From a virus, in IMG/VR virus record IMGVR_UViG_2885994973_000001, positions 1 through 13,406 of that record: a stretch of 13,406 nt of DNA. One strand, given 5' to 3'. How positions within the stretch are numbered: the first letter of the stretch is position 1; the number at the start of each line of letters is the position of its first letter. Positions 1 through 13,406 of this stretch are shown here, one piece after another. Under the pieces are notes generated by a model. That model had not been told where the DNA came from, searched no databases, and saw only the letters and a list, made by a program, of their open reading frames with translations. Both the position numbers and the translations under genes were made by a program.

Positions 1-137
1 AAAGGGTAATGTTTGCACTATGTCCATGGCTATAGTCCATGTTGATAGTCCTTATAGACTCCCATAGTGCAACAAAGGCCAAGATTGTGGAAGGAACCGA
101 CCTGACTTTAAGCCGCGTAGTTGGAGCCCCGCCGGTG
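1..137. promoter_or_regulatory. Right part of the same repressor/xis operator region (duplicate copy at window start)
   Basis: TGCACTATG at 14-22 is inverted with CATAGTGCA at 63-71. CTATGTCCATG (18-28) and CTATAGTCCATG (30-41) are near-repeats. ATAGTCC occurs at 32-38 and 45-51. Confidence 0.55.
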
Positions 138-148
138 ATGCCATGGCG
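1..148. repeat. Terminal direct repeat, copy A (identical to 13259-13406)
   Basis: Base-by-base comparison of the window start with 13259-13406 shows identity up to the window edge, at an offset of 13,258 bp. Confidence 0.95.
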
Positions 149-302
149 CGAGTTTGCCAACTGGATCCGCATGGAGAACGAGCACGACACCGTGCGGGGC
201 TGGATTCGCAACGGCTACCTGCCGTCCAAGAAGATCGGCAAATACGTGCTGGTGAACGTTGCACTGCTGACCAAGCAGCTCATGGAAGAGGAGTGGGAGT
301 GA
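138..302 (+). CDS. Excisionase-family HTH DNA-binding protein (XisF-like lysis-lysogeny regulator), about 54 aa
   Basis: MPWREFANWIRMENEHDTVRGWIRNGYLPSKKIGKYVLV fits the excisionase/AlpA-type HTH pattern (..tvrrWi..G.lP..kiGk..l). The gene is divergent from the repressor. GGAG lies at 123-126, and GTG at 135 is an alternative start. The longer track ORF from 39 would run through the operator repeats, so it is disfavoured. Confidence 0.6.
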   Translation: MPWREFANWIRMENEHDTVRGWIRNGYLPSKKIGKYVLVNVALLTKQLMEEEWE

Positions 303-502
303 TGAAGACTCAATACGTCGTCGAAACCTGCACCTTCCACGGCCTGACCAAGCAACGTCGCTGGCACCGCGTGCACACCGGCCCGTCTCTCATGGACTGC
401 AACGCTTACGTCGGCAGCACCATTGCCAGCATGTACGCTCACTGGCGTCCTGAGCGTGCCCTGGATCTGTTCCGCGTCCGTGGCGTGAGGACTTCCGCAT
501 GA
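302..502 (+). CDS. Small hypothetical early protein, 66 aa
   Basis: The ATG at 302 overlaps the xis stop (TGATG). Codon third positions are strongly G/C in this frame. The track ORF 143-502 is an N-terminal extension in the same frame. Confidence 0.55.
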   Translation: MKTQYVVETCTFHGLTKQRRWHRVHTGPSLMDCNAYVGSTIASMYAHWRPERALDLFRVRGVRTSA

Positions 503-723
503 AAGCACCTGCCCTGTTCTCTGTTCAGCAATTCAAAGACCTCTGCGTCTGGCTGTTCTGGCTTTCGGCTTACGTGGCCTTCTGCGTGCTGTTCAGCCAC
601 CTGTTTAAGAGTCTTTGGGCTCTGCTTGTCGATGTGCCGGTACAGGCAATCGCCGCAATCGTGGCCGCTTCTATCGGTGCAATCGCTATCGGTTTTCGCC
701 TAGCCATGGGGGAGGGCAGATGA
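499..723 (+). CDS. Small hydrophobic (about 2-TM) hypothetical protein, 74 aa
   Basis: An ATGA start/stop overlap joins it to the previous ORF. It has two hydrophobic stretches (LCVWLFWLSAYVAFCVLF; AIAAIVAASIGAIAIGF) and high GC3. Confidence 0.55.
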   Translation: MKAPALFSVQQFKDLCVWLFWLSAYVAFCVLFSHLFKSLWALLVDVPVQAIAAIVAASIGAIAIGFRLAMGEGR

Positions 724-726
724 TCA

Positions 727-1059
727 ATGCAAAAGTACCTGCACCAGCCCCACAGGCCGGACTGCGACTGCTCTGTCTGCTATGTCAAAAGACTGGGGCC
801 TATCAGCCTGTCGCCACGCTGCGCCCAATGCCGCCCCGTGCGCTGTTTTCCGGTCGTTGGCCAAATGCGGCTGGTGAACGGGCACTGGCTGCACGTGAGC
901 AGTACCTACCGCTGGGCCTCGGGCTTTACCTGTCCCCAGCACTCACCAACGCCGTGCCCGCCTCGGTACTGGTACATGGTGGAAAACATCGGCAAGCCAA
1001 CGCCTTACGTCCCGCGCTGGGATCTGTTCGAGCTGGAGTCTGAGCCATGCACGACCTGA
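727..1059 (+). CDS. Cys-rich hypothetical protein, 110 aa (possible zinc-binding)
   Basis: GGAGGG at 711-716 lies 10 nt upstream of the ATG. GC3 is high in this frame. CDCSVC...CAQC..C motifs are present. The competing frame 720-1043 is Ala/Arg/Pro/Leu-rich shadow sequence. Confidence 0.55.
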   Translation: MQKYLHQPHRPDCDCSVCYVKRLGPISLSPRCAQCRPVRCFPVVGQMRLVNGHWLHVSSTYRWASGFTCPQHSPTPCPPRYWYMVENIGKPTPYVPRWDLFELESEPCTT

Positions 1060-1220
1060 CCGGATTTATGCCTGTAGGCGAGTGCTTTTACTGCGGCCAA
1101 ACCCAGGTGGTGAGCTGCCAGGGCTTCAACGTGGCGGACATCCCGGACGTGATCGTTTGCGGGGACTGCCAGGACATCAACGAACGTCGCCTCGCTGACC
1201 TTGAAGGGAAAACCGAGTAA
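1047..1220 (+). CDS. Small zinc-ribbon-like protein, 57 aa (not in the supplied ORF track)
   Basis: My translation is MHDLTGFMPVGECFYCGQTQVVSCQGFNVADIPDVIVCGDCQDINERRLADLEGKTE. It has two CxxC pairs and high GC3. It overlaps the upstream ORF by 13 nt, and its TAA stop overlaps the next ATG (TAATG). Confidence 0.5.
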   Translation: MHDLTGFMPVGECFYCGQTQVVSCQGFNVADIPDVIVCGDCQDINERRLADLEGKTE

Positions 1221-1417
1221 TGCCCGGCATCGTCCTGACCGTCGCCCAAGCCGCTGAGCTGTTGCCCTTGGCCAGCCAGCAGTTGGGCCGCATCCAGCAC
1301 CAACAGGACGCTGCCAACGAGAAAGGCATCCCGGAAAACTGGGGTGTGGATGAATGGCAGGAAATCGTAGAAGCCCTGCAAGGCCCAATCGTTCATGGGG
1401 TGGTGTATGTCGCCTGA
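1220..1417 (+). CDS. Small hypothetical protein, 65 aa
   Basis: The start is coupled through TAATG to the previous ORF. GC3 is high and the composition is acidic and soluble. Confidence 0.5.
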   Translation: MPGIVLTVAQAAELLPLASQQLGRIQHQQDAANEKGIPENWGVDEWQEIVEALQGPIVHGVVYVA

Positions 1418-1631
1418 GCTGTTCGTTGTGATCACGTACTGCCTGCTGGTTCTGTGCTTCATGACCCTTGGCCTGTTGTTCGCCTTCCTGCTGCTGCGCC
1501 GTGAGTTCTGCCCGCGCCGTGGTGGGCAGCCGAATCAGTCGCCTCCGGCGTCCGTGACTGGCCAACGCGATCACCCGGCCAGTTCACCGCGCGCACCGCC
1601 AGTCGCGGGCGACGGTGGCGAAATGGGATGA
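1407..1631 (+). CDS. Small membrane protein, about 74 aa (N-terminal TM helix, Pro/Ser/Ala-rich tail)
   Basis: The ATG at 1407 overlaps the end of the upstream ORF by 11 nt. The helix ELFVVITYCLLVLCFMTLGLLFAFLLL is followed by RR. The track start at 1395 is an alternative. Confidence 0.5.
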   Translation: MSPELFVVITYCLLVLCFMTLGLLFAFLLLRREFCPRRGGQPNQSPPASVTGQRDHPASSPRAPPVAGDGGEMG

Positions 1632-1810
1632 CAAGGGCAAGGCCCTTGGTGTGAACAAACGATCAGGCAACGCCTGACCCGGCTTTAACCCCCGGTAGAC
1701 CGATAAGCACCTGCAGGTTTTGAACTTCGAAGTTCACCTGCACGGACTCGCTCGGCCTGCTGAAAGGCAAAACCGCGCAATAACGCGCAACTGAAAAGAG
1801 GAAACACCCA
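1632..1810 (+). promoter_or_regulatory. Structured intergenic region upstream of the structural operon (candidate promoter, ori or packaging signal)
   Basis: There are hairpins at 1632-1648 (CAAGGGC/GCCCTTG) and 1663-1677 (TCAGGC/GCCTGA). A perfect 14-bp palindrome GAACTTCGAAGTTC at 1722-1735 is flanked by CACCTGCA at 1708-1715 and 1735-1742. CGCGCAA occurs twice (1774-1780, 1784-1790). The SD GAGGA is at 1798-1802. Confidence 0.45.
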
Positions 1811-2164
1811 ATGGCACGTTCGACTATGGAAGTTGCATTCCTGGGCACTCAGATGACCCAAGTTGATGACACCAAATACGCCAAGGTCTTCTACGGCGAC
1901 GAACCAGACGGCAAGACCGAACACGGCCTGTCGATCATCGGCATGGCCATCGCTGAAGACGCCGCCGACGAAGTATTCATGGCCGGCGCCCAGTTCGAGC
2001 CTCTGCAACTGGTGCGCATCACCTTCGACGTCGCCCGCGGCGGCCAGAACAAGGGCAAGAACCTCGCTCTGCATATCGAAGCCGTGGACAACAAAGCCCG
2101 TACCACGGCGAGCCCTGCGCCTGCTGCCAACACCGGCAAGCCTGCCGACCCGGCCAAAGCCTAA
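1811..2164 (+). CDS. Putative ssDNA-binding protein (g5p analogue), 117 aa
   Basis: It is the first gene after the long intergenic region, with a strong SD 8 nt upstream. It lies immediately upstream of the tiny hydrophobic ORFs and the coat gene, as in Ff/Pf phages. It has a Pro/Ala-rich C-terminal tail (TTASPAPAANTGKPADPAKA), as I recall for the Pf1 gene 5 protein. The assignment rests on position and composition only. Confidence 0.5.
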   Translation: MARSTMEVAFLGTQMTQVDDTKYAKVFYGDEPDGKTEHGLSIIGMAIAEDAADEVFMAGAQFEPLQLVRITFDVARGGQNKGKNLALHIEAVDNKARTTASPAPAANTGKPADPAKA

Positions 2165-2188
2165 CCCTGGCCGCCTGGAGCTCACCGC

Positions 2189-2305
2189 ATGGGAATCGAC
2201 GCCTATCTGGCCAACGTCACCCTCGGTGATCTCTGGGCCCTGCAGTTCATTCAAGGCGTGGTGATGATCGCCGCCCTTGGCCTTATCCACGGGCACCAGA
2301 GGTAA
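2189..2305 (+). CDS. Tiny hydrophobic protein, 38 aa (g7p/g9p-like or PfsE-position ORF; not in ORF track)
   Basis: My translation is MGIDAYLANVTLGDLWALQFIQGVVMIAALGLIHGHQR. CTGGAG lies 8 nt upstream and GC3 is high. The ORF sits between the ssDBP and the major coat gene. Confidence 0.45.
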   Translation: MGIDAYLANVTLGDLWALQFIQGVVMIAALGLIHGHQR

Positions 2306-2311
2306 CGGTTT

Positions 2312-2437
2312 ATGGCTTTCACCTGGGGGCAGTACCTCGTTATCGCTGGGCTCTTTGTGGGTGCTCTCGGGATTGGCGTGTCCTGGGGGGCCTTCCGGCT
2401 GGGCTGGAAGGAAATCGTCGACGCTTCAACCAACTGA
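2312..2437 (+). CDS. Tiny hydrophobic protein, 41 aa (g7p/g9p-like or PfsE-like; not in ORF track)
   Basis: My translation is MAFTWGQYLVIAGLFVGALGIGVSWGAFRLGWKEIVDASTN. GAGGT lies 8 nt upstream. It has a single TM helix with Trp/Gly-rich flanks. Confidence 0.45.
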   Translation: MAFTWGQYLVIAGLFVGALGIGVSWGAFRLGWKEIVDASTN

Positions 2438-2448
2438 GGAAACAACTC

Positions 2449-2751
2449 ATGTACCAAAGCAAAAAAGAAGCTGCCATTCGTGGCGGCCAGCTCGTACAGA
2501 ACGAGGCCAGTGTCGGTAAAGCACTGGGCGGCAAATCGCTCGCTCTGATCACTGCCGGTGCGGCCTCGCTGACTGCCGGTTCCGCCAATGCTGCAATCAC
2601 CGTCCCGCCTGAGCTGCTCGAAGTCTTCACCGATCTGGCGCTCGCGTTCGGCACCCTGATGGCGGCTGGTGCCGTGCTGTTCGGCGTTATCCGTGGTGGT
2701 GTGGCCCTGTTCAAGATCGCCGGTCGCGTATTCAGCGCTGCGGGCGCCTAA
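2449..2751 (+). CDS. Major coat protein precursor (g8p/CoaB-like), 100 aa
   Basis: The SD GAGGA is 8 nt upstream. A long leader ends in SANA|A, an AxA signal-peptidase site. The predicted 52-aa mature part has an acidic N-terminus (PPELLEVFTD), a hydrophobic core and a basic C-terminus (RGGVALFKIAGR), the classic inovirus coat layout. Confidence 0.8.
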   Translation: MYQSKKEAAIRGGQLVQNEASVGKALGGKSLALITAGAASLTAGSANAAITVPPELLEVFTDLALAFGTLMAAGAVLFGVIRGGVALFKIAGRVFSAAGA

Positions 2752-2771
2752 ACAGGGTTGGGGGTCGACTG

Positions 2772-4184
2772 ATGCGTACGGCTTTCGGCCTCCGCCTGTT
2801 ACTTGCTCTCACCCTTATGGGGTGGGGGCAGTTTGTTTTTGCTGAGGGCAACTTTTGGCAAGTTGATGGCGATGAGAGCTCCCGTGCGGGCTCCGCTCAA
2901 GCGCTTTGCGCTCGCCTCGTCGGTGAGTTCAACGCCGATGCCTATTGGCGAATTTACGATGATGCGGCCATCCCTGAGCAGCGTAAATTCTGCGATGCCT
3001 ACGGCAACATCGGTCAGACCTTCAAGATCTGGCCGCTTGTTCGTCTGAGCTGTCCTGCGGGTACCACCGTAGATCCTGTCACCGGCAAATGCTCGTCACC
3101 TCCTGTTGAGTGTGAGCCGTTAACAGGTCAGCGCTTCAGTTTCTTCGCCGTCGTCCCGAACGGTGGCAATAGCCTCCCTGGTGAGTACATCTGCCAGCAG
3201 GGCTGCCGTGCTGCCTGGTCTGGTGAGTGCGGTGCTAATGATCAAGGCATATCCGCTTGCTCGGGCCTTGCTACCTACAACGGACAGGTTTGCCAAAGCG
3301 GCGACACTCCGTCCGGCCTCGGTACACCTCCAAAAGATCCGAGTGAGCCAACCGACCCCACTACGCCGCCCGATCCAACTGACCCGCCAGACCCTACCGA
3401 TCCGCCTCCGGTCTGCGGCCCTGGTCATACATGGTCGGGCACTACCTGCGTAAAAGACCCACCCAAACAATGCGATCCCTCCACGGGTGAAGTCTGCCCG
3501 CCGACTGATCCTACTGACCCGAATAACCCCACCGATCCAACCGACCCCGATAACCCTGGCGACGGCGGTGATGGTGACGGCTCTGGTGATGGCGACGGCG
3601 ATACCGGTACGGGCGAACCCGGCGACGGCGACCAAGAAAAGCTTGGCGAGAAGATCGACAAGACCAACAGCCTGCTCGATGGCATCAGCAAAGCCCTGGG
3701 CAACCTGGGCGATGCCTTCAAAGAGTTTGCCGAGGATGCCCTGGGCGAGAAGTACGACGGCGAAGGGGACGGCGACGATAAGAGCATCGGCGAAGCCGCT
3801 GCAGGTTTGGCCGGTAGCTTGGCTGGCAACTTCGGCCAGGGCCTGAATGATTCCCTGGAAGCTCAGGAAGCACTCAACCAAGGCACCTTGGGCGACTTGC
3901 CCAACCTCGTCGGCAATGAGTGGTTCGGCCCCGGCACCGTGGCCTATTCCACGGTGTTCATGATCGACAAGGTGTTGCCTCGCGCCGGCAACTGTTCCGC
4001 CTTCGATGTGAAAGTCGATGCCGGAAAGCTGCACACCAACCTGCGCCTGGACGCCTGTGAGCTGAGCCGCATTAAGCCCCTGCTCGAGTGGATCGTGTGG
4101 ATGGGCACCATCATCGGCGTGTGGCGAATCGCCTATGCCGGCCTGCGTCTTGAAAACGCCAAAGCCGAAAAAGGAGGCTTCTGA
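2772..4184 (+). CDS. Minor coat / adsorption protein (g3p/CoaA-like), 470 aa
   Basis: It has a signal peptide (..GWGQFVFA|EG) and Cys-rich N-terminal domains. Low-complexity PTDP and GDG linkers lie at about 3327-3410 and 3498-3632. A C-terminal membrane anchor (LLEWIVWMGTIIGVWRIAYAGL) is present. The gene sits directly after the coat gene. Confidence 0.75.
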   Translation: MRTAFGLRLLLALTLMGWGQFVFAEGNFWQVDGDESSRAGSAQALCARLVGEFNADAYWRIYDDAAIPEQRKFCDAYGNIGQTFKIWPLVRLSCPAGTTVDPVTGKCSSPPVECEPLTGQRFSFFAVVPNGGNSLPGEYICQQGCRAAWSGECGANDQGISACSGLATYNGQVCQSGDTPSGLGTPPKDPSEPTDPTTPPDPTDPPDPTDPPPVCGPGHTWSGTTCVKDPPKQCDPSTGEVCPPTDPTDPNNPTDPTDPDNPGDGGDGDGSGDGDGDTGTGEPGDGDQEKLGEKIDKTNSLLDGISKALGNLGDAFKEFAEDALGEKYDGEGDGDDKSIGEAAAGLAGSLAGNFGQGLNDSLEAQEALNQGTLGDLPNLVGNEWFGPGTVAYSTVFMIDKVLPRAGNCSAFDVKVDAGKLHTNLRLDACELSRIKPLLEWIVWMGTIIGVWRIAYAGLRLENAKAEKGGF

Positions 4185-4561
4185 TGCTCGGCTGGATCAA
4201 AGGGTTCTTGCAGAAGTTCTTCCCCAACCTGTTCAAGCGTTTCAACGGCTGGCTGCTGGCATTCATCACGCCGCTGATTGCGCCGTTTTTCGAGTTCATC
4301 ACCAAGCTCTTTCGCAAGGTCGCGCTGTTCCTGCTGATCGTCGCCGCCATCGGCACGGCCATCGTCGTGTTCGCCAAGGCCGTTGAATCGGTGGTCGGGC
4401 GCATCGCTACCGAAATGGCCCCCGCTGACCTGATCGTCTTCGGCCAGATGTTCCTGCCGAGCAACTTGGCTCAGGGCATCACCATCCTTCTGTTCGCCCG
4501 CCTGCACTCCCTGGTGTTCATGTGGGTGCACCGCCTCACTGAAAAGTTTATCCACACCTGA
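4184..4561 (+). CDS. g6p-like minor coat / membrane protein, 125 aa
   Basis: A TGATG overlap couples it to the g3p-like gene. The protein is very hydrophobic and multi-spanning. It lies between g3p-like and g1p-like genes, as in Ff. Confidence 0.65.
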   Translation: MLGWIKGFLQKFFPNLFKRFNGWLLAFITPLIAPFFEFITKLFRKVALFLLIVAAIGTAIVVFAKAVESVVGRIATEMAPADLIVFGQMFLPSNLAQGITILLFARLHSLVFMWVHRLTEKFIHT

Positions 4562-4570
4562 GGATCGCCC

Positions 4571-5671
4571 GTGGCCGTCTACATCGTTACCGGCAAGCTG
4601 GGTGCTGGCAAAACCCTGCTGTGCATCCTCAAGATTCTGGAATACCTCAAAGCCCGCCGCCGCGTTGCCGTCAACGTCGATGTGAAGATGGACAAGCTCT
4701 GCCGGGGGGATAACAAGTACTCGCGCCTTGTCCGCCTGCCTGACCTGCCATCGGCTGAAGATCTGGTCGGTTTGGGCTTCGGCCATGAAACCTACGACGA
4801 AGAGAAATTCGGCGGGATCTTCCTCGACGAAGCCGGCGTGTGGCTCAACTCCCGCGACTGGAATTCCGGTGGCCGTACCGACCTGCTGAAGTTCTTCCTG
4901 TTCCTGCGCAAACGCCGCTGGGATCTGTGGTTGTGCGTGCAAAACGTCAACGTCATCGATAAGCAGATTCGCGAATCCATCGCTGAGCACGTGGTGTACA
5001 TCAACCGCTGGGACAAGCTGAAGATTCCCTTCGTGTTCCGCCTGCCGCTGCGTGTCCTGAGCTTGGGTATGTGGAAAGGCAACCTGCCGAAACTGCATCA
5101 GGCCATCGTGAAATACGGCGCCAAGTTCAACTCACCCAAGGTTGAAGACTGGTTCTACCAAGGCAAAGAGTTCTACAGCTATTACGACACCACCCAGGAA
5201 TACAACAAGGACTACGACAAGGGCTCGTACTCCATGCTCCCGCCCGGCTACTGGCGTCGCCGCCTTCCTGCATCACCTCGCGACCTGGGGTTTCTCATGC
5301 GCACCACCAAAATATTCTTCCGCCGCACTCGGGTGGTGAACGCCTTTTTCCTGGGCGGCCTGATCACCCTGTTTGTTTCGCTGCCGGTGTTCTCGGCTAT
5401 TGCCTGGATTCGTACGCCGGGCGTCGCCGTACAGGAAAAACCAGCCGCTGTAGAAGAAGAGAAAAAGGCCACCTTGGCCGAAGAGTTCGAGGGCTACCGC
5501 ATCGCCTCCTATGGGCTCATGTCGGGCCAGTCCCGCTATGTGTTCGTGGATCCCGACGGCAAGCGCATCCGCTCCGAGGATCTGCTCTCCCGCGCTATCA
5601 CCATCGATCCACGGGGGCCGCGAGAAGTGCGGTTGCTGCGTGGTACCGACTCCCTCACCGTCTACAGGTAA
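4571..5671 (+). CDS. Zot/g1p-like phage assembly ATPase, 366 aa
   Basis: It starts at GTG, with GAGGA 6 nt upstream. Walker A is GKLGAGKT at the N-terminus and Walker B-like is GGIFLDEAG. There is a single central TM segment (VVNAFFLGGLITLFVSLPVFSAIAWI). Confidence 0.85.
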   Translation: MAVYIVTGKLGAGKTLLCILKILEYLKARRRVAVNVDVKMDKLCRGDNKYSRLVRLPDLPSAEDLVGLGFGHETYDEEKFGGIFLDEAGVWLNSRDWNSGGRTDLLKFFLFLRKRRWDLWLCVQNVNVIDKQIRESIAEHVVYINRWDKLKIPFVFRLPLRVLSLGMWKGNLPKLHQAIVKYGAKFNSPKVEDWFYQGKEFYSYYDTTQEYNKDYDKGSYSMLPPGYWRRRLPASPRDLGFLMRTTKIFFRRTRVVNAFFLGGLITLFVSLPVFSAIAWIRTPGVAVQEKPAAVEEEKKATLAEEFEGYRIASYGLMSGQSRYVFVDPDGKRIRSEDLLSRAITIDPRGPREVRLLRGTDSLTVYR

Positions 5672-5677
5672 TCGGCC

Positions 5678-7021
5678 ATGAAACGTTGGCTTTCTCTGGT
5701 ACTGCTGCCGCTCGCCCTCACTTCCACGCTCGCCCGCGCTGCTGTGGAGAAGATCGAACTGTACGACTCCACCCTGCAGGACTTCGTAGAGTGGGCCGCC
5801 GTGATGCTGAATAAATCGGTGGTCGTCGGTTCCGATATCCGCTCGGCGCCGATCTCGATTTTCGCCACCTTCGATGGCCCCCAGGAACTCGAACAGCTCT
5901 TGGAAAACGCCGTCCTGTCTTCGGGCTTTCACTACTCCAAAAGCCCCAACGCGATCCGCATCAGCGCACAACCGATTCAGGAATCGCCCGTCCTGGTCAC
6001 AGAGGTGATTCAGCTCCAGCACCTGCAGTCCGACTTCGCCGAACAGTCCGTCCGCGATGTGCTGGCTTCCCGCGCTGACCGCAACACTGAGAACAACACC
6101 ACCGGCCAGGTACTCGTCACACCGTCGCCCACCTCGAACGCCCTGATCGTCACTGCCACGCGCCCCCAGCTCGACGCCATCAAAGAGGTGGTCACCGAAA
6201 TCGACCGACCGCGGCGACAGGTGCAAATCACCGCGGTGGTGGCTGAGCTGTCGGATAACGACTTCGAAGCCCTGGGCCTTAATGCCGCTGCCGGCTCAAA
6301 CCGCCTCGATCTGTCGGGCCGCACCATCCGTTCTTCGGATCGCTCCGACCTGGGCTTCAGCCTCACGTTCTCCGGCCCGACCATCTCGGCCTTCCTGCAG
6401 GCGGTGCGCTCCAGCTCCAGCAGCAACCTGTTATCCACGCCTCAGCTACTGACCCTCAACCGTGAACCCGCATCCATCGTCGTCGGCCAGAACGTCCCCT
6501 TTATCACCGGCCAGACCACCAGTGGCTCCACTCCGGCATCAGATCCGTTTCAAACCATCGTGCGCCAGGATGTGGGCGTAACCCTACAGGTCACGCCCTT
6601 CATCACGCCGGCCGACGCGATAGAGCTGCAGGTCAGCCAGTCCGCCTCTAGCGTCTCGGACGACAACACCGCCGCCGACATCATCACCAACACGCGCCGC
6701 ATCATCACGCGGGTACAGCTCAAGGATGGCCAGGGGGTGCTCCTGGGTGGGCTGCGATCGACGCAAACCGATCGCTCTACCAGCGCGGTGCCGATCCTCG
6801 GTGATATCCCGTACCTGGGGCGCGCCTTCCGCTACGAATCCAACCGCGTACGCACCACCAACCTTGTGGTGCTCATAACCGCCCGTATACAGGCCCTGAA
6901 CCACAACGAGCTGATGCCGGCTGATGCGGGGCCGTGGATGGATCTTTCGTTCGGCGCGTTGCCCGGCGGTGGTTTGGGCGCAGCCCGTGACACCGCCGGG
7001 CGCGCGACGGGCGCCCGGTGA
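5678..7021 (+). CDS. Phage-encoded outer-membrane secretin (g4p/GspD family), 447 aa
   Basis: It has a signal peptide (LTSTLARA|AVEK). Secretin C-domain signatures are present: LLSTPQLLTLNREPASIVVGQNVPFITG, GVTLQVTPFI, VLLGGL, VPILGDIPYLGRAFRY and LVVLITARI. It lies directly after the g1p-like gene, as in Ff. Confidence 0.85.
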   Translation: MKRWLSLVLLPLALTSTLARAAVEKIELYDSTLQDFVEWAAVMLNKSVVVGSDIRSAPISIFATFDGPQELEQLLENAVLSSGFHYSKSPNAIRISAQPIQESPVLVTEVIQLQHLQSDFAEQSVRDVLASRADRNTENNTTGQVLVTPSPTSNALIVTATRPQLDAIKEVVTEIDRPRRQVQITAVVAELSDNDFEALGLNAAAGSNRLDLSGRTIRSSDRSDLGFSLTFSGPTISAFLQAVRSSSSSNLLSTPQLLTLNREPASIVVGQNVPFITGQTTSGSTPASDPFQTIVRQDVGVTLQVTPFITPADAIELQVSQSASSVSDDNTAADIITNTRRIITRVQLKDGQGVLLGGLRSTQTDRSTSAVPILGDIPYLGRAFRYESNRVRTTNLVVLITARIQALNHNELMPADAGPWMDLSFGALPGGGLGAARDTAGRATGAR

Positions 7022-7088
7022 CGTCCCTGTAACACGTCAGATAAACCAGCTTGAAAGTGGCCATTATTGGCCAATAAGGGAAAAACAG

Positions 7089-8369
7089 ATGAGCGTTAAA
7101 GACCAGCGACGGATTGACCGAGCAACCGGCTCAGAGAGCAAGACGGGTCGTCTCTTCATGGATGCTGCGTCAGCAGCATTGACCGACCTTTCGCGAGTAC
7201 GCCTGCTGCGCTGTGGCGTGGACACCGTGCGCCAGTTGTATCGGGGCCTGATCCGCCCTGAGATCATGTGCCTGTTCGAGAAGCCCGGCGCCATGGTCGA
7301 ATTCGCTGACCAGATCTGGCACTCGGGCCGTGTCAGCAAAGACTCTGGCTACCAGTACAAGCTCCAGAACGCTGACCTCGGCATCATCCTGCTGGTGAAG
7401 AACTTCAACGCCAAGATCGACGCCATCGGCGCCCACCTGAAAATCGAAGTCTCGCCCCATGCCATCGACGCGCTGTCGCCTGAGCGCCTGCAAGACCGCA
7501 TGGACTATTACGCCTCGGCTGTCCTGACCCACCGTGAAATCAACCAGTGCGCAGTCCACCTCGCCCTGGATCTGCAAGGCTGGAAACCGCCTGTAGATCT
7601 GGTCGCCCGTATGCACTGCCGGGCACGCACTCAACGCGATATTTCGGGCATCAATGAAATCAACTGGACCACAAAATCCAGCACCTACGGTCGCGGCGAA
7701 ACCTTCATGTTCGGTTCGGCCAGCGGCGTGCAACTGGCGATCTACAACAAGACCGAGCAAGCCCGGGCAACCGACAAACTCGACTACTGGGAAAGCGTGT
7801 GGAAGCGCCGCGACAGCTTCGACCCACAAGATCCCGATAACTATGATCCTGACGCCGATGTATGGCGCGTAGAGCTGCGCTATCACCATTCGGTCATCCA
7901 GCAATTCGCCAGTGGCTCAATCGACCTGAAGTCCGGCGCACTGATCGACACCAGCTCCTTTGCCGCCTTCGCTGGGCATCTGGACGGCCTGTGGCGCTAT
8001 GGCTTGAGGCAATTCAAGTTGCTGGCCCGCCCAGGATATTTCGAGCCCATCTGGACGCTGATCCGCGACGACGTGCGCGTCGATCTGCCGGTGGACTCCC
8101 TGCTCGATGACACCGAATACAAGCGTTACTACAAGACCTCGCGTGGCTTCTCCGGCAAGAACGTGGAGCTATTCCTGGGAAACTTCGTAAGCCTGCTGGC
8201 AAGGGAAAAGGTGGGCGCAAAAAAGGCGTTTAAGACCCTGCAGCAATGGGACTGCTGGCCGGTCATCCGCGATCATTACGCCGCCAAGGACATGACCCAG
8301 GACGATCTCTACAAACATATCCGGGATCTTCTGCAGGAGCGTCACGTGCGGTGGGGTAGAGCGGTCTGA
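7089..8369 (+). CDS. Rolling-circle replication initiation protein (Rep_trans-like motifs), 426 aa
   Basis: The ATG at 7089 follows the structured spacer. Motifs AVHLALDLQG, LAIYNKTEQ (candidate catalytic Tyr) and VWRVELRYHH resemble the RxDxAxD / YxK / RxE pattern of replication initiation factors of filamentous phages and RCR plasmids. The track ORF start at 6924 would overlap the secretin by 98 nt and is rejected. Confidence 0.7.
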   Translation: MSVKDQRRIDRATGSESKTGRLFMDAASAALTDLSRVRLLRCGVDTVRQLYRGLIRPEIMCLFEKPGAMVEFADQIWHSGRVSKDSGYQYKLQNADLGIILLVKNFNAKIDAIGAHLKIEVSPHAIDALSPERLQDRMDYYASAVLTHREINQCAVHLALDLQGWKPPVDLVARMHCRARTQRDISGINEINWTTKSSTYGRGETFMFGSASGVQLAIYNKTEQARATDKLDYWESVWKRRDSFDPQDPDNYDPDADVWRVELRYHHSVIQQFASGSIDLKSGALIDTSSFAAFAGHLDGLWRYGLRQFKLLARPGYFEPIWTLIRDDVRVDLPVDSLLDDTEYKRYYKTSRGFSGKNVELFLGNFVSLLAREKVGAKKAFKTLQQWDCWPVIRDHYAAKDMTQDDLYKHIRDLLQERHVRWGRAV

Positions 8370-9349
8370 TGGCGATCAAGAAGCTTCCTGATGGCCGTTG
8401 GCATGTAGACATTGAACCCGCTCATGACCGGCGTTTTCGTAGAACCTTCAAAACCAAGGGTGAGGCTCAACGCTTTGAAACTACCTGCCGCTCCAAGGTA
8501 GCTGAATCGCGCGACTGGTCGCCAAGGCCCAAGGATAAACGTCGGCTCTCTGAGCTTATGCAGCTCTGGTATGACTTGCACGGCCACTCACTGCGATATG
8601 CAGCCGGTCGCCTGCGTAAACTGCTCTATCTTGCTAAGCGTCTGCGCAATCCCGTGGCCATCCGACTCGACCCGCATGTCTACGCTAATGACCGGCGCTT
8701 GAGGATGGAAGCCGGCACTTCGCCCAAGACGCTCAATAACGAGCTGGGTTACCTGCGTGCCGTGTACAACGAGCTGCGCGGCCTGGGCGTTATTGACTAC
8801 CCGAATCCGCTGGAGCTGGTTAAGCCATTGCGTGTCCAAGAACGTGAGTTGTCCTGGCTGACTAATGAGCAGATAGCCGAGTTGCTGCAGGCGATCCGTT
8901 CGGGCTGCGATAACCCGCACGTCGAAATCATCGTGTTGATCTGCTTGGCCACTGGTGCCAGATGGTCTGAGGCCGAAAAGCTCAAGCCGCATTCGTTGCG
9001 TAACCGGGTGATTACGTTCAGTGGTACCAAAAGCGGCAAGGTACGATCGGTGCCGATCTCTGCCGAGCTTGAAGCCAGGATCATTCGTCACTGGCGTGAG
9101 TATGGCCAGCCAAACTCGGCCATTACCGCGTTCCGCCGCGCCTTGGCCCGCACGACCATCAAGCTACCGAAGGGGCAGGCAGCGCATGCACTGCGCCATA
9201 CCTTCGCTAGCCACTTCATCCAAAACGGCGGAAACATCGTCACGCTACAGCGAATCCTGGGTCATTCGAGCTTGGCCATGACCATGCGGTATGCGCATCT
9301 CGCTCCTGACCATCTGCAGGACGCTTTACGTTTCGGCCCTACGTTGTGA
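8369..9349 (+). CDS. int: Tyrosine recombinase / phage integrase, 326 aa
   Basis: It has ATGARWSEA (Arg I), HALRHTFASH (HxxR) and LGHSSLAMTMRYAHL (catalytic Tyr). The start is coupled to rep through TGATG. It lies next to the attP-like site. Confidence 0.9.
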   Translation: MAIKKLPDGRWHVDIEPAHDRRFRRTFKTKGEAQRFETTCRSKVAESRDWSPRPKDKRRLSELMQLWYDLHGHSLRYAAGRLRKLLYLAKRLRNPVAIRLDPHVYANDRRLRMEAGTSPKTLNNELGYLRAVYNELRGLGVIDYPNPLELVKPLRVQERELSWLTNEQIAELLQAIRSGCDNPHVEIIVLICLATGARWSEAEKLKPHSLRNRVITFSGTKSGKVRSVPISAELEARIIRHWREYGQPNSAITAFRRALARTTIKLPKGQAAHALRHTFASHFIQNGGNIVTLQRILGHSSLAMTMRYAHLAPDHLQDALRFGPTL

Positions 9350-9359
9350 ATCTCAGCGG

Positions 9360-9605
9360 CTACTTATCGCTGATTCTCGCCCTGGCTAAGGCATTCGCTG
9401 CAAGGTGCTTGATATACCTCAGCTCGCCCGGCGTGTGCTTATCTGACTGGTGCGCTTCGATCAATCTCACAAGCTCATTAATACTTTTTGGATCTTTCGC
9501 CATCTCAGCCTTGATGATTTCGATAGCACCGTCAGCGCAATAGCGCTCAACTCCGCCGAAATTCAGTTCTCCGACGTTTATCTTCAATTTCGACCCTCCG
9601 CGCAC
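9360..9605 (-). CDS. Hypothetical small protein, 75-81 aa, between int and att
   Basis: The ORF is convergent with int and has intermediate GC. The track start is GTG at 9605. A TTG at 9587 has a better SD (GGAGGG, 6-nt spacer). I recognised no motifs. Confidence 0.4.
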   Translation of the reverse strand: MRGGSKLKINVGELNFGGVERYCADGAIEIIKAEMAKDPKSINELVRLIEAHQSDKHTPGELRYIKHLAANALARARISDK

Positions 9606-9688
9606 TTTCTCAGCCGGCGTGAAGGTAAAGCATGAGCGCCCTTACGCAAGCAGTAATCATAGATACTTACGACTAATTTACGACACAC

Positions 9689-9733
9689 AAAGAAAAACCC
9701 CTGACTTTCTCTAGGAAAATCAGGGGTTTATTT
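9689..9733. terminator. Bidirectional rho-independent terminator
   Basis: A 12-bp stem with one mismatch pairs CCCCTGACTTTC (9698-9709) with GAAAATCAGGGG (9715-9726) around the loop TCTAG. An A-run (9689-9697) precedes it and TTTATTT (9727-9733) follows. On the minus strand it directly follows the tRNA-like ...CCA end. Confidence 0.75.
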
Positions 9734-9755
9734 GGTGGAGCCGGGGGGATTTGAA
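9733..9755 (-). other. attP core candidate: 23-nt copy of a tRNA-like 3' end (T-loop, T-stem, acceptor strand, ACCA)
   Basis: The minus strand reads TTCAAATCCCCCCGGCTCCACCA: T-loop TTCAAAT, stem CCCCC, acceptor CGGCTCC, discriminator A, then CCA. The upstream 5 nt (ACGGA) cannot form the T-stem, and no matching 5' acceptor strand occurs within 100 nt. It is therefore a fragment, not a gene. Confidence 0.65.
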
Positions 9756-9770
9756 TCCGTTTCAATTACT

Positions 9771-9785
9771 GCCCTTTGCTGCCTA
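9771..9785 (+). repeat. 15-bp direct repeat GCCCTTTGCTGCCTA, copy 1 (candidate integrase arm site)
   Basis: It is a perfect match to 9843-9857, 72 bp apart, inside the non-coding att region. Confidence 0.6.
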
Positions 9786-9842
9786 TGTTTGCTCAACGTC
9801 AGCAAATACGCACCGTATGTTTATTCACGCCTGCCCAATGTA

Positions 9843-9857
9843 GCCCTTTGCTGCCTA
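9843..9857 (+). repeat. 15-bp direct repeat GCCCTTTGCTGCCTA, copy 2
   Basis: It is a perfect match to 9771-9785. Confidence 0.6.
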
Positions 9858-9932
9858 GCGTTTACGACACTTTTTCGACACCACGACGCTTTCCAATCTT
9901 GGGTTGGATCGTTTTTCGCCTGAGTCAGCTCG

Positions 9933-11156
9933 CTAAGGAATGCTCAGGTCTTTAATCTGTGAGAAAGCAAATTTTAATATCTGTTTTGTGAAGTCGTTTA
10001 GTTCGTCGTTTTTTGCGATGGCATAAATAATTCCTATGATTAACACACCTGCAGCAAGGTCATTTATAAAAATCAGTCTTGATTTGGATTTTATTATGAT
10101 GGTGAGTAATTTTTCTTTTGCTTCCTCTGCGCTTACTCGTACTTCGTTTTCATCTTTCATCACTTCGTAACGTTTTAGGGAACGTTTTATTTGCTCGGCT
10201 AAAGCGTCGTAAGCCTCAGAATGAATTCTGTTGGCTATGACGGTCAGAATCCATACACATAATAGAGAAAAGCATACCATTCCTAACGATGGGATATCAT
10301 CACTTCGAGCTAGTGCCGCAACAGCAATTACTGCTCCTGGAATTGCAAAAGCTTTTGTTTGGCTTGAGGATATTGAATCGTTGATTTTTGTTATGTACTC
10401 AGTGGACTTTTCTTCTATTTCTGTAAGTAATTTATTTGCCGAGAATTTGTGAAGATATACATCGTAGTTTTCTTTGTATTTCTTTTGTAGTCTACTCCCC
10501 TGCGTTATCAGCCAAGGCATTGATGTGTTTTCTTCAAGTAATTCCGCTAGGGATGTTCTTAAAACATCTCTACGTTCTTTTTGATGACCATCTAAAAGTT
10601 TGATTGCACTGTGTAGTTGGTCAAGATCTTCGCTCGTGCTGTCTGTAATGCACAGCTCCAACAGTTCAGGGAGCTTGATTTTTTTAGGGTTTACTTCGTA
10701 AATCTTTGCTCCTTTGTCTGTGCTTATGAAGTATATGAGCGTTGAATCATTGCCCTCTGAGCCTCTGTGGTCTTTGAGACTCGTCAGAAATTGTCTCCAG
10801 CTCAGATAGTGCTCTATCGTTTTTATTTCTTTTGCTTTTTTATCGCACTCACTATGAATTTTTTCTTTAAGAATATAGTAATTTGCCGGGAGTTTTTCAT
10901 GGTTCCTTGCCTCATCCCATAGAGCTTCAATTGACTCATAAAAGGGAGAGTTGTTGTCCCAAGCTTCGGCGTCTAGTTCAATAGCTAAGTAATATATTTC
11001 GGCATCATGGCTTTCTATGGTTTGGGCTCTCAAGTACCCAATCTCACAAATTTCACTGTGAGCTTTTCTAAGTTCTTCTTCGCTACCGTAAATGCAAAGA
11101 AAGCCGCCCTCTGCCTTGGGCGGTAACTTTTGTAAAAGCTCAGTTAGAGTCTTCAT
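9933..11156 (-). CDS. Cargo protein B: large soluble N-terminal domain plus three C-terminal TM helices, 407 aa (414 aa if TTG at 11177 is used)
   Basis: G+C is low (19/60 in 10021-10080). The ATG at 11156 has GAGAG 5 nt upstream, while the track start at 11177 is TTG without an SD. Hydrophobic helices lie at about aa 276-291, 297-316 and 368-388 (414-aa numbering). It overlaps the end of the upstream gene. Confidence 0.75.
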   Translation of the reverse strand: MKTLTELLQKLPPKAEGGFLCIYGSEEELRKAHSEICEIGYLRAQTIESHDAEIYYLAIELDAEAWDNNSPFYESIEALWDEARNHEKLPANYYILKEKIHSECDKKAKEIKTIEHYLSWRQFLTSLKDHRGSEGNDSTLIYFISTDKGAKIYEVNPKKIKLPELLELCITDSTSEDLDQLHSAIKLLDGHQKERRDVLRTSLAELLEENTSMPWLITQGSRLQKKYKENYDVYLHKFSANKLLTEIEEKSTEYITKINDSISSSQTKAFAIPGAVIAVAALARSDDIPSLGMVCFSLLCVWILTVIANRIHSEAYDALAEQIKRSLKRYEVMKDENEVRVSAEEAKEKLLTIIIKSKSRLIFINDLAAGVLIIGIIYAIAKNDELNDFTKQILKFAFSQIKDLSIP

Positions 11157-12300
11157 CTGAGCTCTCGTGATCTCCAATGCTAGCTTTTATTTTCTCTCTA
11201 TCTGCTTCGCTTAAGGGGATTTTTAGATAAGTTAGCTCGTCATCTACCTGCACCGGTTTATTCGATCCTGCGTATCCTATCGATGCAGCTTTTACCGATA
11301 CAGAATAGTTGCTATTGAAATCAGTGATTTTAATAGAGATGCTTTTTTCTAAAGCTTGCCGTGTCGCTTCAAAAACAGAGTTGATTTGAAATCCATTTTC
11401 ATTTGCATATTTAGCAAATGTTGCTGTGAGTTTGTGTCCTGCAGGTAGGCCTTTGTCTATTACTTGTTGTATTTCAACTAGTGAAACTTGTTTGCCCAGA
11501 TTTTTTTCAATATGTTCGTAAACTTTTTCAGTAACCTTTTTCAGGAATGCTGGCCCAAGTTTATTCTCATTTGAGAATTTCTTGATTGCCTCGAACACAT
11601 TGTTTACGCTTTGCTGGTTTGTGACTTTTATGTCGCACCCTAAAGCTGTTTTGAAAAACTCAGCTTTTGACTTCCCGTCGATGAAGTGCAGGTACGCTGA
11701 ACCTTCTTTTTTGGGGTGTATCTCGAGAAATAGCGTCAGATCGAACATTGCAGCTTGTCGCAATGCGTCAGTATCTATAGGTTGTAATCTTCTCGGCTGA
11801 AGGGTTCCTTCTTCAAATTCAAAGGCTCCTTTTTTGTCAACCATTACAATCATCAGTCTTCCATGATCTTCATAGTCGCCAAAAGTTTTGTAATGCATGA
11901 ACACGATGTTTCCGCCTACAAGGTTTCGACTCTCCGACTCATTGGCTGTTATGGTTAGAATTTTTATCAGTTCTACCGCTAAGTCATCTAGCGCTATATC
12001 TCCTGATATTAGTTTTTTTAATCCATCCGGTGTTTTGTTAGATGGTAGTCCAGAAAAATAGCTGTGAAACTTATTTTTTCTTCGAAACTTTTTTTGTATT
12101 TGCTCAACGAATTCTGTAGAAACGTTGTTTTTCAAATTCCATGTGTTACCGACTTGATACTTGAAGGGGTGGCCTTTAGTCTCTTTGTCTCGTTCTAGTG
12201 ATGCAGTTATAGCTGCTAGTACAGATATGCTAGGTGAAGCAGTCGGTGTTTTCTCTGATTTGCTATCTTCGCTAACTTCAGTGCCCACTTTGTTGTTCAT
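11140..12300 (-). CDS. Cargo protein A: NdpA/YejK-family (NA37) nucleoid-associated protein homologue, 386 aa
   Basis: Motifs align by eye with E. coli YejK. VGGNIVFMHY matches ADGGIVLFCHY, and LMIVMVD matches LLVAVLS. IDTDALRQAAMFDLTLF matches INHADIVARIDLTEW. AYLHFIDGKSKAEFFKTALGC matches [24 protein letters not shown]. G+C is low and the start is ATG at 12300. Confidence 0.75.
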   Translation of the reverse strand: MNNKVGTEVSEDSKSEKTPTASPSISVLAAITASLERDKETKGHPFKYQVGNTWNLKNNVSTEFVEQIQKKFRRKNKFHSYFSGLPSNKTPDGLKKLISGDIALDDLAVELIKILTITANESESRNLVGGNIVFMHYKTFGDYEDHGRLMIVMVDKKGAFEFEEGTLQPRRLQPIDTDALRQAAMFDLTLFLEIHPKKEGSAYLHFIDGKSKAEFFKTALGCDIKVTNQQSVNNVFEAIKKFSNENKLGPAFLKKVTEKVYEHIEKNLGKQVSLVEIQQVIDKGLPAGHKLTATFAKYANENGFQINSVFEATRQALEKSISIKITDFNSNYSVSVKAASIGYAGSNKPVQVDDELTYLKIPLSEADREKIKASIGDHESSDEDSN

Positions 12301-12348
12301 GGCTTTCCCTATTCTGCTTGTGCTGACTTATATTATTATCTTTGCTGG

Positions 12349-12891
12349 TTAATCTCTGTGGCTTAGCCCAACTGCAGACCTACAGTTTCTGCGTTCTATG
12401 CTTCCTTCCTTGTGAGGCCAGCACGCGCGATCTTTCATGCTAGGTGACTGTTCTATTATTGTTACGCGCACCTTGTCTGCACTCTTCGCCGTCTCTCTTA
12501 CTTGATGTGCTCGTGTTGCAGGTATCACATTGACTGCATGAGCCGGTAGATATGTTGCTGCGTTGTATTCAGTTTGTTTAGGCTGCTGAATCTGAGTACT
12601 TTGCGAAGTTCGCTCCGTTTCGCTTGAGCGTCTCGCCACCTCTTCAACGATCTTGTCCCAGTCTTTTTCGGCGGGCGCCGATCTGGTGATTTCTGCGATG
12701 GGGGCTTGCTTTGACTTTTGGCCGTTAAGTATTTGGTCAGCCACGTCATGCATATAAAGCGCGCTCAGGGTGTAGAGCATTCCTACCGTGAGGATGCTTC
12801 CCAGAAATGACGCAACAATCCATGTTGATCCATTGCTTCTGCGGGCACTTGGCCTGAAGTGAGTCGGTGCATCATCCCTGTCAGCTTTCAT
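12349..12891 (-). CDS. Membrane-anchored hypothetical protein, 180 aa, downstream of the repressor
   Basis: The SD AAGGA is 7 nt upstream of the ATG. A positively charged N-terminus (RPSARRS) is followed by one TM helix (WIVASFLGSILTVGMLYTLSALY) and a roughly 130-aa polar C-terminal domain with 2 Cys. It is on the same strand as the repressor, 55 nt downstream. Confidence 0.6.
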   Translation of the reverse strand: MKADRDDAPTHFRPSARRSNGSTWIVASFLGSILTVGMLYTLSALYMHDVADQILNGQKSKQAPIAEITRSAPAEKDWDKIVEEVARRSSETERTSQSTQIQQPKQTEYNAATYLPAHAVNVIPATRAHQVRETAKSADKVRVTIIEQSPSMKDRACWPHKEGSIERRNCRSAVGLSHRD

Positions 12892-12946
12892 TCCTTCATC
12901 CTTGTCGTTCGGGCGTACCAGCGCCTAGCTACTTCCTGAGTGATCG

Positions 12947-13213
12947 CTATCCCGCGTTTTGACCGGTCAAGGTTCGATTGGCCTCGTCGTATTCGGGGCT
13001 CGTTTGGCCGATTTCAGGCATCACCTCCCCAGTGCTCAGCCACCATCTGTAATTCGGGTAAGCCTTGCCCAATATCTCTATTTCTTCAGCTCCGACCCGC
13101 GCTCTGCCGCGCTTAATACTCACCCAACGGTTGTAGTCCGTCTCGCCTGCTCGGGTCAGCTCGCTGAGGTTGCTCGCGCTGATTAGTAGAAGGGCTCTAT
13201 CAGTAATGTTCAT
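12947..13213 (-). CDS. Small HTH immunity repressor (Pf4r / P2 C-like by position), 88 aa
   Basis: It is divergent from the excisionase-like gene across the repeat-rich operator. It has an HTH-like segment, NLSELTRAGETDYNRWVSIKRG. Its size is typical of inovirus/P2-type C repressors. Confidence 0.6.
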   Translation of the reverse strand: MNITDRALLLISASNLSELTRAGETDYNRWVSIKRGRARVGAEEIEILGKAYPNYRWWLSTGEVMPEIGQTSPEYDEANRTLTGQNAG

Positions 13214-13395
13214 TCAATAGAAATATAGATTATTTGGACTATGTACAAGACATACTCTAAAGGGTAATGTTTGCACTATGTCCATGGCTATAGTCCATGT
13301 TGATAGTCCTTATAGACTCCCATAGTGCAACAAAGGCCAAGATTGTGGAAGGAACCGACCTGACTTTAAGCCGCGTAGTTGGAGCCCCGCCGGTG
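13214..13395. promoter_or_regulatory. Divergent repressor/excisionase intergenic control region (operators plus promoters); contiguous copy
   Basis: This 182-bp AT-richer spacer lies between the repressor ATG (13213, minus) and the xis ATG (13396, equivalent to 138). It holds a 9-bp inverted repeat, TGCACTATG at 13272-13280 and CATAGTGCA at 13321-13329. The ATAGTCC/GGACTAT motif recurs (13236-13242, 13290-13296, 13303-13309). CTATGTCCATG and CTATAGTCCATG form a direct near-repeat. Confidence 0.6.
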
Positions 13396-13406
13396 ATGCC
13401 ATGGCG
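13259..13406. repeat. Terminal direct repeat, copy B (identical to 1-148)
   Basis: This is the same 148 nt as the window start. It contains the operator region and the first codons of the xis-like gene (ATG at 13396). Confidence 0.95.

Follow-up and report, generated by a model that had tools for sequence, protein, structure and literature searches.

The DNA analysed here (the window) is a stretch of 13,406 nucleotides from IMG/VR virus record IMGVR_UViG_2885994973_000001, and it is the entire 13,406-bp contig C7 of a 5.4-Mb genome. It represents an integrative inovirus of Pseudomonas, from the fulva/straminea neighbourhood. In this study, we examined its gene at 5678-7021, which very probably encodes the outer-membrane channel for virion export, a pIV (G4P) homologue, of a 13.3-kb integrative mosaic filamentous phage. 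For the question of how Pf phages exit across the outer membrane, where Pf4 presumably relies on a secretin of its host (PMC7549136), the lineage described here is a natural and moderately useful comparator, in which a replication, integration and regulation backbone of the Pf type is combined with a pI/pXI/pIV export set of the Ff type.

The gene at 5678-7021 encodes a pIV-type secretin

The open reading frame (ORF) at 5678-7021 (stop codon included; coordinates are those of the window, and features lie on the plus strand unless stated otherwise) is open throughout and encodes a product of 447 aa. Pfam detected the Secretin domain (PF00263) at residues 243-404 with an E-value of 9.5e-43 and 146 bits against a cut-off of 27.5, and a single Secretin_N domain (PF03958) at residues 108-181 (E 2.9e-8, 34 bits, over its cut-off). 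A sequence-only reading of the window had recognized a secretin with a signal peptide in this product, and the secretin is confirmed by these matches, well past chance. The N-terminus, MKRWLSLVLLPLALTSTLARA/AVEK, when read by eye from the translation, displays a basic n-region, a hydrophobic core and an A-x-A cleavage site without a lipobox Cys, which also bears out the second half of that statement, a Sec-type signal peptide of residues 1-21 (5678-5740) with cleavage after ARA.

In the Protein Data Bank (PDB), the best sequence match was pIV, through which f1 virions are exported (7OFH, E 1e-42), and the GspD structures of type II secretion systems (T2SS) came next (6e-40 to 1e-30). Among 50,697 phage records, the top matches were the pIV proteins of If1, Ff, fs2/VFJ, Vibrio cyclitrophicus inoviruses, IKe/I22 and Erwinia PEar, with identities of 30-32% over 85-88% of the length. 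The protein is collinear over its full length with the pIV proteins of f1, If1 and fs2 (31-32% identity), the tblastn alignment reaching residues 1-5.

Further structural prediction with AlphaFold2 (AF2), for which 30 homologues served as input, gave a monomer model with a mean pLDDT of 67, laid out as N0 (residues 24-96), N3 (107-175), secretin barrel (181-404) and a disordered tail. The N0 domain (residues about 24-96, 5747-5965) was assigned from its secondary-structure order, from Foldseek and from the pIV alignment; its elements follow the order beta-alpha-beta-beta-alpha-beta-beta with pLDDT 83-90, and Foldseek matched it to the N0 domains of XcpQ, GspD and MxiD. All 62 displayed Foldseek matches in the PDB with E ≤0.001 were secretins or secretin N-domains; only the ranking and E-values were used, since the query was a model of a single, elongated multi-domain subunit and the targets were taken from assembled rings, which kept the TM-scores low. 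The N3 domain (Secretin_N, 5999-6220) is followed by the secretin C-domain (residues 243-404, 6404-6889) with the invariant VGQNVPF motif of the gate region, which is included in the 56 columns that are invariant in an alignment of 30 homologues with identities down to 36%. The C-terminal tail (residues 405-447, 6890-7018) is variable and disordered, with pLDDT <50 and poor conservation in the alignment. A role of this tail as an S domain for pilotin binding was set aside, since the tail is variable, disordered and partly encoded by intergenic DNA of the backbone.

The protein therefore has the short architecture of signal peptide, N0, single N3 and secretin domain within 447 aa, with no N1, N2 or S domain. 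Among 111 fetched loci, the Zot-adjacent secretins are likewise 400-514 aa long, versus 626-997 aa for complete secretin ORFs without a nearby Zot. In comparison with the closest orthologue, pIV has a dN/dS ratio of 0.067 and pI one of 0.025, and the secretin gene is therefore under purifying selection. Its ORF is intact in 9/9 genomes of the genus that have it, namely the window's own genome and those of eight other species.

The secretin and its partner pI share one phylogeny

The secretin gene starts 6 nt past the stop codon of the ORF at 4571-5671, which encodes pI, a Zot-type assembly ATPase of 366 aa (Pfam Zot, 2.7e-19). The sequence-only reading had placed the secretin directly after Zot/g1p, where gene IV stands in Ff phages, and this arrangement is borne out. 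The window's pI is 37-38% identical to the pI proteins of fd, f1, fs2 and Vibrio phages, and has a Walker A motif (GKLGAGKT) at residue 8, a Walker B motif at residue 83 and one transmembrane helix at 255-280. An internal methionine, Met243 (nt 5297, context MRTTKIFFRRTR), corresponds to the start of f1 pXI, Met241 in MKLTKIYLKKFSR, suggesting that an equivalent of pXI is likely translated from this position.

The sequence-only reading had proposed a comparison of the secretin with cellular secretins and phage pIV proteins in a phylogeny. We built a quick tree of 51 rows and a careful LG+C20 tree of 32 rows, which agree with each other. In the 32-row tree, 16 Zot-adjacent secretins, including those of the window, f1, If1 and fs2, fall in one clade with a support of 96/95. 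The same clade has an SH-aLRT value of 98 in the 51-row tree, and the secretin of Pf3 is the sole Zot-adjacent one outside it. Three fully supported subclades were recovered, the first holding a Pseudomonas group with the window, the second Ff, If1 and Photorhabdus together with Halomonadaceae prophages, and the third fs2 and Vibrio phages. The phage pIV clade is separate from the cellular GspD-like proteins, and it is far from three proteins of the host itself, namely PilQ, SctC and a secretin of 541 aa without an assigned type. The last of these (L002, G000:C45:169487-171109) is a secretin-domain protein on a very long branch, with all its NCBIfam scores below the cut-offs.

Correspondingly, 25/25 pI proteins encoded beside such a pIV fall in one clade (100/99) with a long stem and the same three subclades, and the Zots of the pIV-less Pf-like prophages (Pf1/L107; L100/L105/L111; L109) and of Pf3 lie outside it. 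Since the pI tree mirrors the pIV tree, the two genes have been co-inherited as a pair. It is the type of pI, not the backbone, that predicts whether a secretin is carried. The annotated pIV of Pf3 (L086, NC_001418, 2084-3376) groups with PilQ (99/97) on a long branch. This placement tentatively suggests that inoviruses may have acquired secretins at least twice.

Distribution of the gene

Close homologues of the secretin, with identities of 59-99%, make up over 90 protein clusters, drawn from Pseudomonas, Ectopseudomonas, Metapseudomonas, Halopseudomonas, Stutzerimonas and metagenomes, and at least 25 viral contigs in IMG/VR encode secretins that are 59-97% identical to it. Most of the clusters are annotated as T2SS protein D or as 'secretin N-terminal domain-containing protein'. 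The labels 'type II secretion system protein D' and 'general secretion pathway protein D', which wrongly suggest a component of a cellular T2SS, are corrected by the present analysis. A literature search found no paper describing this Pseudomonas lineage.

We further surveyed the genus of the host in 400 species-representative genomes. A replication initiator (Rep) of the Pf type was present in 36 of them, in about 60 copies, and a pIV of the window's type in 8/400, which are 8 of the 36 Rep-positive genomes. By coordinates, this pIV lies directly upstream of a Rep copy in 8/8 cases, and the whole block is conserved. When 12 Rep loci without pIV were sampled, five proved to be complete inoviruses with Zot abutting Rep, one of them with Pf1-type structural genes, and the other seven were Rep-Int loci without Zot. 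The latter (L101-L104, L106, L108 and L110) carry unrelated upstream cargo, such as a HipA-like kinase, a DUF2971 protein and a zinc alcohol dehydrogenase, and no structural genes; they may be satellite-like or decayed elements. Up to four Pf-type Rep copies were seen per genome (G173, G307 and G337), three of those in G173 being nearly identical.

According to the sequence-only reading, a secretin gene in a Pf-like phage was unusual, and would cease to be so if close Pf relatives commonly carried it. The claim stands in so far as Pf1 and the P. aeruginosa prophage Pf 62-2 are without a secretin. It gives way in that secretins of the Pseudomonas phages Pf3 and PMBT54 were already on record, and in that the gene recurs in the genomes, contigs and clusters counted above, which goes part of the way towards a common gene. 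The finding is real but fairly ordinary, and the gene is no rarity.

Proposed export pathway and alternative explanations

The secretin most probably works with the phage's own pI/pXI in the way known from Ff phages. In this pathway, the precursor would be exported by Sec and its leader then removed, and the mature secretin would form multimers in the outer membrane. With its N0 domain, which faces the periplasm, it would dock on the phage's own inner-membrane ATPase pI and on the probable pXI, in both cases at the C-terminal periplasmic domain, and coated single-stranded DNA (ssDNA) filaments would exit without lysis and without a host secretin. We infer channel formation, pI-pIV contact and independence from host secretins by homology with the Ff phages. 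Several points weigh against this assignment. The host retains PilQ and other secretins, so the use of a host channel is possible. The C-terminal 43 residues differ from f1 pIV, being variable and predicted to be disordered. The monomer model is only moderately confident at its pLDDT of 67, with low values in the gate loops. Moreover, NCBIfam has no pIV-specific model, and its best match to the protein is GspD, below the cut-off.

Three alternatives were weighed. In the first, the channel also serves co-resident secretin-less Pf-like prophages or Rep-Int elements in trans, or opens hosts that have no suitable secretin. Five of the eight other pIV genomes (G300, G301, G255, G023 and G307) do hold a further Rep without an adjacent pIV, and 7/12 sampled Rep-Int loci are without any Zot. 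In addition, the window's own genome (G000), G186 and G059 have no secretin that reaches the cut-off of the GspD equivalog (TIGR02517), and 6/6 sampled hosts without this pIV have one. Yet 6/9 pIV hosts have a canonical GspD, and the phages of the three GspD-less hosts are close relatives of one another, so that these hosts do not count as independent observations. A link between phage type and the lack of a host GspD was consequently rejected, the sample being too small and too non-independent to carry weight. PilQ is present in G000, G186 and G059, and the type III secretion protein SctC in the own genome G000. A role in trans or in widening the host range is unlikely. It is similarly doubtful that the pI-pIV exchange is a host-dependence switch for Pf-type prophages, with a channel perhaps also used in trans; if it were, a backbone with its own channel could live in Pseudomonas without a usable secretin.

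The second alternative is that the gene is dispensable or a decaying remnant and that the phage exits via a host secretin like Pf1 and Pf4. Most Pf-type Rep copies in the genus are indeed without an adjacent secretin, the five sampled full prophages go straight from Zot to Rep, and the C-terminal tail extends into intergenic DNA of the backbone. Decay nevertheless fits poorly with an ORF that is intact in all nine genomes of the genus and evolves at a dN/dS comparable to that of pI, with the 56 columns, gate-region motif included, that stay invariant across 30 homologues down to 36% identity, and with a pI of the type that always travels with pIV. We therefore regard a remnant as very unlikely and favour a functional export channel.

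Hardly credible, finally, is a recent capture of a cellular secretin (a GspD or PilQ fragment) as cargo, or as a moron, without a role in phage export: the C-domain is as similar to cellular GspD-like proteins (33-40% identity) as to Ff pIV (31-32%) and GspD is the best NCBIfam model, but the GspD score of 232 bits is well under the cut-off of 351 with profile positions 271-589 alone matching, the protein has a short layout of N0, N3 and secretin domain that lacks N1, N2 and S, it falls in the 96/95 clade of Zot-adjacent secretins away from the host's own ones, and its partner pI has the same phylogeny, with the gene always between pI and Rep. No chromosomal secretin from a Pseudomonas gsp or pil operon was seen as its sister among 529 genome matches and in the host genome, and capture from the host was rejected on the basis of the trees and the host's own secretin inventory.

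A Pf-type backbone with a virion and export block of the Ff/If1/fs2 lineage

We compared all ORFs of the window by tblastn with the genomes of Pf1, Pf3, f1, If1, fs2 and one Vibrio inovirus. Its Rep is 56% identical to Pf1 orf430 (E 2e-154), the N-terminus of its integrase matches Pf1 orf100, and matches to orf90, orf71 and orf103 of Pf1 were obtained for three early ORFs. In contrast, pI and pIV match the Ff/If1/fs2 group only, and coat protein, pIII, pVI and pI have no tblastn match to Pf1 at E 1e-2. Conversely, Pf1 proteins match locus L107 and not the pIV-bearing loci, save for one weak pIII match (31%, L095). Judged from these comparisons, the backbone is Pf-like, with early and excisionase-like genes, genes for the ssDNA-binding protein, Rep and the integrase, and its attP lying in ssrA, and the virion and export block (coat, pIII, pVI, pI and pIV) is from a lineage that includes Ff, If1 and fs2. 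The sequence-only reading had called the phage Pf-like, which is right for its Rep, integrase and early genes but not for its virion and export block, pI included.

The boundaries of the block, which spans approximately 2091-7000, were located by comparing the window, in blastn and tblastn searches, with the pIV-less relatives L100, L105, L111 and Pf 62-2. Homology to these relatives ends at about 2080-2091, in the 3' end of the gene for the ssDNA-binding protein, and restarts at about 6951-7011, the blastn alignments with L105, L155 and L100 resuming at 6951, 7000 and 7011, respectively. The exchanged block of about 4.9 kb thus contains small ORFs and the genes for coat, pIII, pVI, pI and pIV. 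The last 3-23 codons of pIV lie in DNA (6951-7021) that is Zot-Rep intergenic in the pIV-less kin, and the variable pIV tail looks like a by-product of the module junction. The phage is the product of a module swap and not a Pf phage that gained a secretin.

Within the block, the gene at 2449-2751 encodes a major coat protein precursor, recognized from its translation and present in pIV-carrying loci only; the mature protein, which follows ...SANA/, runs from an acidic N-terminus through a hydrophobic core to a basic C-terminus. The next gene (2772-4184) encodes a putative pIII-like adsorption protein of 470 aa, assigned by a match to phrog_4352 (8.7e-33), its repeats and its position. Five degenerate 30-nt repeats at 3330-3548 of this gene encode motifs of the P-T/N-D-P type and probably form a flexible inter-domain linker. 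The ORF at 4184-4561, conserved in pIV-carrying loci only, encodes a hydrophobic protein of 125 aa, which is a candidate pVI-like minor coat protein from its position and a weak DUF5455 match (1.1e-3).

On the backbone side, the ssDNA-binding (gp5-like) protein (1811-2164; phrog_15465, 3e-54) is 96% identical to that of L100 over residues 1-93 and 35% identical to the gp5-like protein of Pf 62-2. Rep, a Pf-type replication initiator assigned by its identity to Pf1 orf430 and to the Rep of Pf 62-2, has 426 aa when read from the ATG at 7089 (7089-8369), and its closest deposited relative is the Rep of Pf 62-2 (79.7% identity). A longer ORF from 6924, which would overlap the end of pIV, was rejected, since relatives align with it only from about its residue 55 and a Shine-Dalgarno sequence (AAGGG) precedes the ATG at 7089. 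The true start is thus probably this ATG, and Rep therefore does not overlap pIV. A tyrosine integrase is encoded at 8369-9349 (Pfam Int_N, 2.7e-33; Phage_integrase, 1.4e-23). A megablast search of bases 1-9700 against the 50,697 phage records gave no match, and therefore no isolated phage is a close DNA relative.

Comparison with known systems

Known phages with similar export genes include the Ff phages (f1/fd/M13), If1 and IKe, whose pIV has the same signal peptide and N0-N3-secretin layout in about 430 aa, is encoded directly after gene I and falls in the same secretin clade, with a 37-38% identical partner pI and a methionine at the pXI start. The two differ in that the identity of pIV is 31-32% only and the window's protein adds the variable tail of 43 residues. 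Moreover, the window is an integrative prophage of a Pseudomonas host with a Rep_trans/Pf-type initiator and a tyrosine integrase, whereas Ff phages are episomal with pII. The inoviruses fs2, VFJ and those of Vibrio cyclitrophicus, as well as prophages of Halomonadaceae (Salinicola, Chromohalobacter and Litchfieldella), belong to the same pI-pIV clade, and in the Halomonadaceae prophages the genes also run pI-pIV-Rep-Int, their identities being 36-38% for Rep and 42-46% for Int. This group is set apart by pIV and pI identities of 32-33% and 36-38%, by its other hosts, and by the fact that no Pf1-like early genes were seen in it, save for one small ORF. Integrative prophages with pIV have been described in other genera (PMC10011098).

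The Pf1-like phages (Pf1, Pf4 and the PfAC series; Primolicivirus) and Pf 62-2 (OR621022) share with the window the integrase, the excisionase-like and early ORFs, the same overall gene order and the presence of defence cargo at the repressor end. The gene order of Pf 62-2 is defence genes, repressor, excisionase, gp5, gp7, CoaB, CoaA, gp6, ZOT, Rep and Int. In contrast, no similarity to their counterparts in the window was detected for the coat, pIII, pVI and Zot proteins of Pf1-like phages, save for one short pIII segment. In Pf1-like phages the morphogenesis block ends with Zot (Evseev et al., PMC10675462); the window has the Rep and integrase of this group but not its coat, CoaA, gp6 and Zot, nor a block ending with Zot. 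The Secretin HMM (PF00263) had no match in Pf1 or Pf 62-2, while f1, fs2 and Pf3 were matched. Pf4 has no G4P homologue either and may exploit host secretins (Fiedoruk et al. 2020, PMC7549136). The statement, in the sequence-only reading, that characterised Pf phages have no secretin thus agrees with all three.

Among the Pseudomonas filamentous phages, the P. aeruginosa phage Pf3 (ORF430, annotated as pIV in RefSeq) and PMBT54, whose own secretin (ORF11) is of the PilQ family (PMC10534721), encode secretins as the window does, but these are of another lineage. The Pf3 secretin is 29.5% identical to that of the window over the C-terminal half only, its gene stands before the Zot gene, an integrase is absent from the Pf3 record, and tblastn found no match in Pf3 to the window's Rep or integrase. 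GspD/XcpQ proteins have homologous N0, N3 and secretin domains. The window's protein differs from GspD in having no N1, N2 and S domains, in standing outside any gsp operon and in belonging to a separate clade. Our finding fits the established picture of variable pIV presence in strongly mosaic inoviruses, whose pronounced mosaicism was stressed by Evseev et al. (PMC10675462).

Element ends, integration site and cargo

The window ends in an exact terminal repeat of 148 nt (1-148 = 13259-13406), and the resulting unit of 13,258 bp is either circular or arranged in tandem. An att core resembling the 3' end of the tmRNA gene (ssrA) lies on the minus strand at 9734-9760, as indicated by the position of L007 and by the junctions in contigs C43 and C19 of the own genome. 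The closest prophage, L007 of P. straminea, abuts the tmRNA gene. Contig C43 (L113/L116) starts with window positions 9608-9730 (100% identity) and continues with the ssrA side, a poly-A stretch and a gap of N, and in the 5.1-kb contig C19 (L115) window positions 9693-13406, present at 99.5% identity, border on 1.4 kb of flanking host DNA. The cargo and regulatory end therefore occurs twice in the own genome, in slightly differing copies, and the two junctions indicate one integrated copy together with either an excised circle or another copy in tandem. Inside the phage unit, the cargo at 9760-12600 has a low GC content (37-42%) and includes, both on the minus strand, ORFs for an NA37/YejK-like protein (11140-12300) and for a 414-aa protein (9933-11177).

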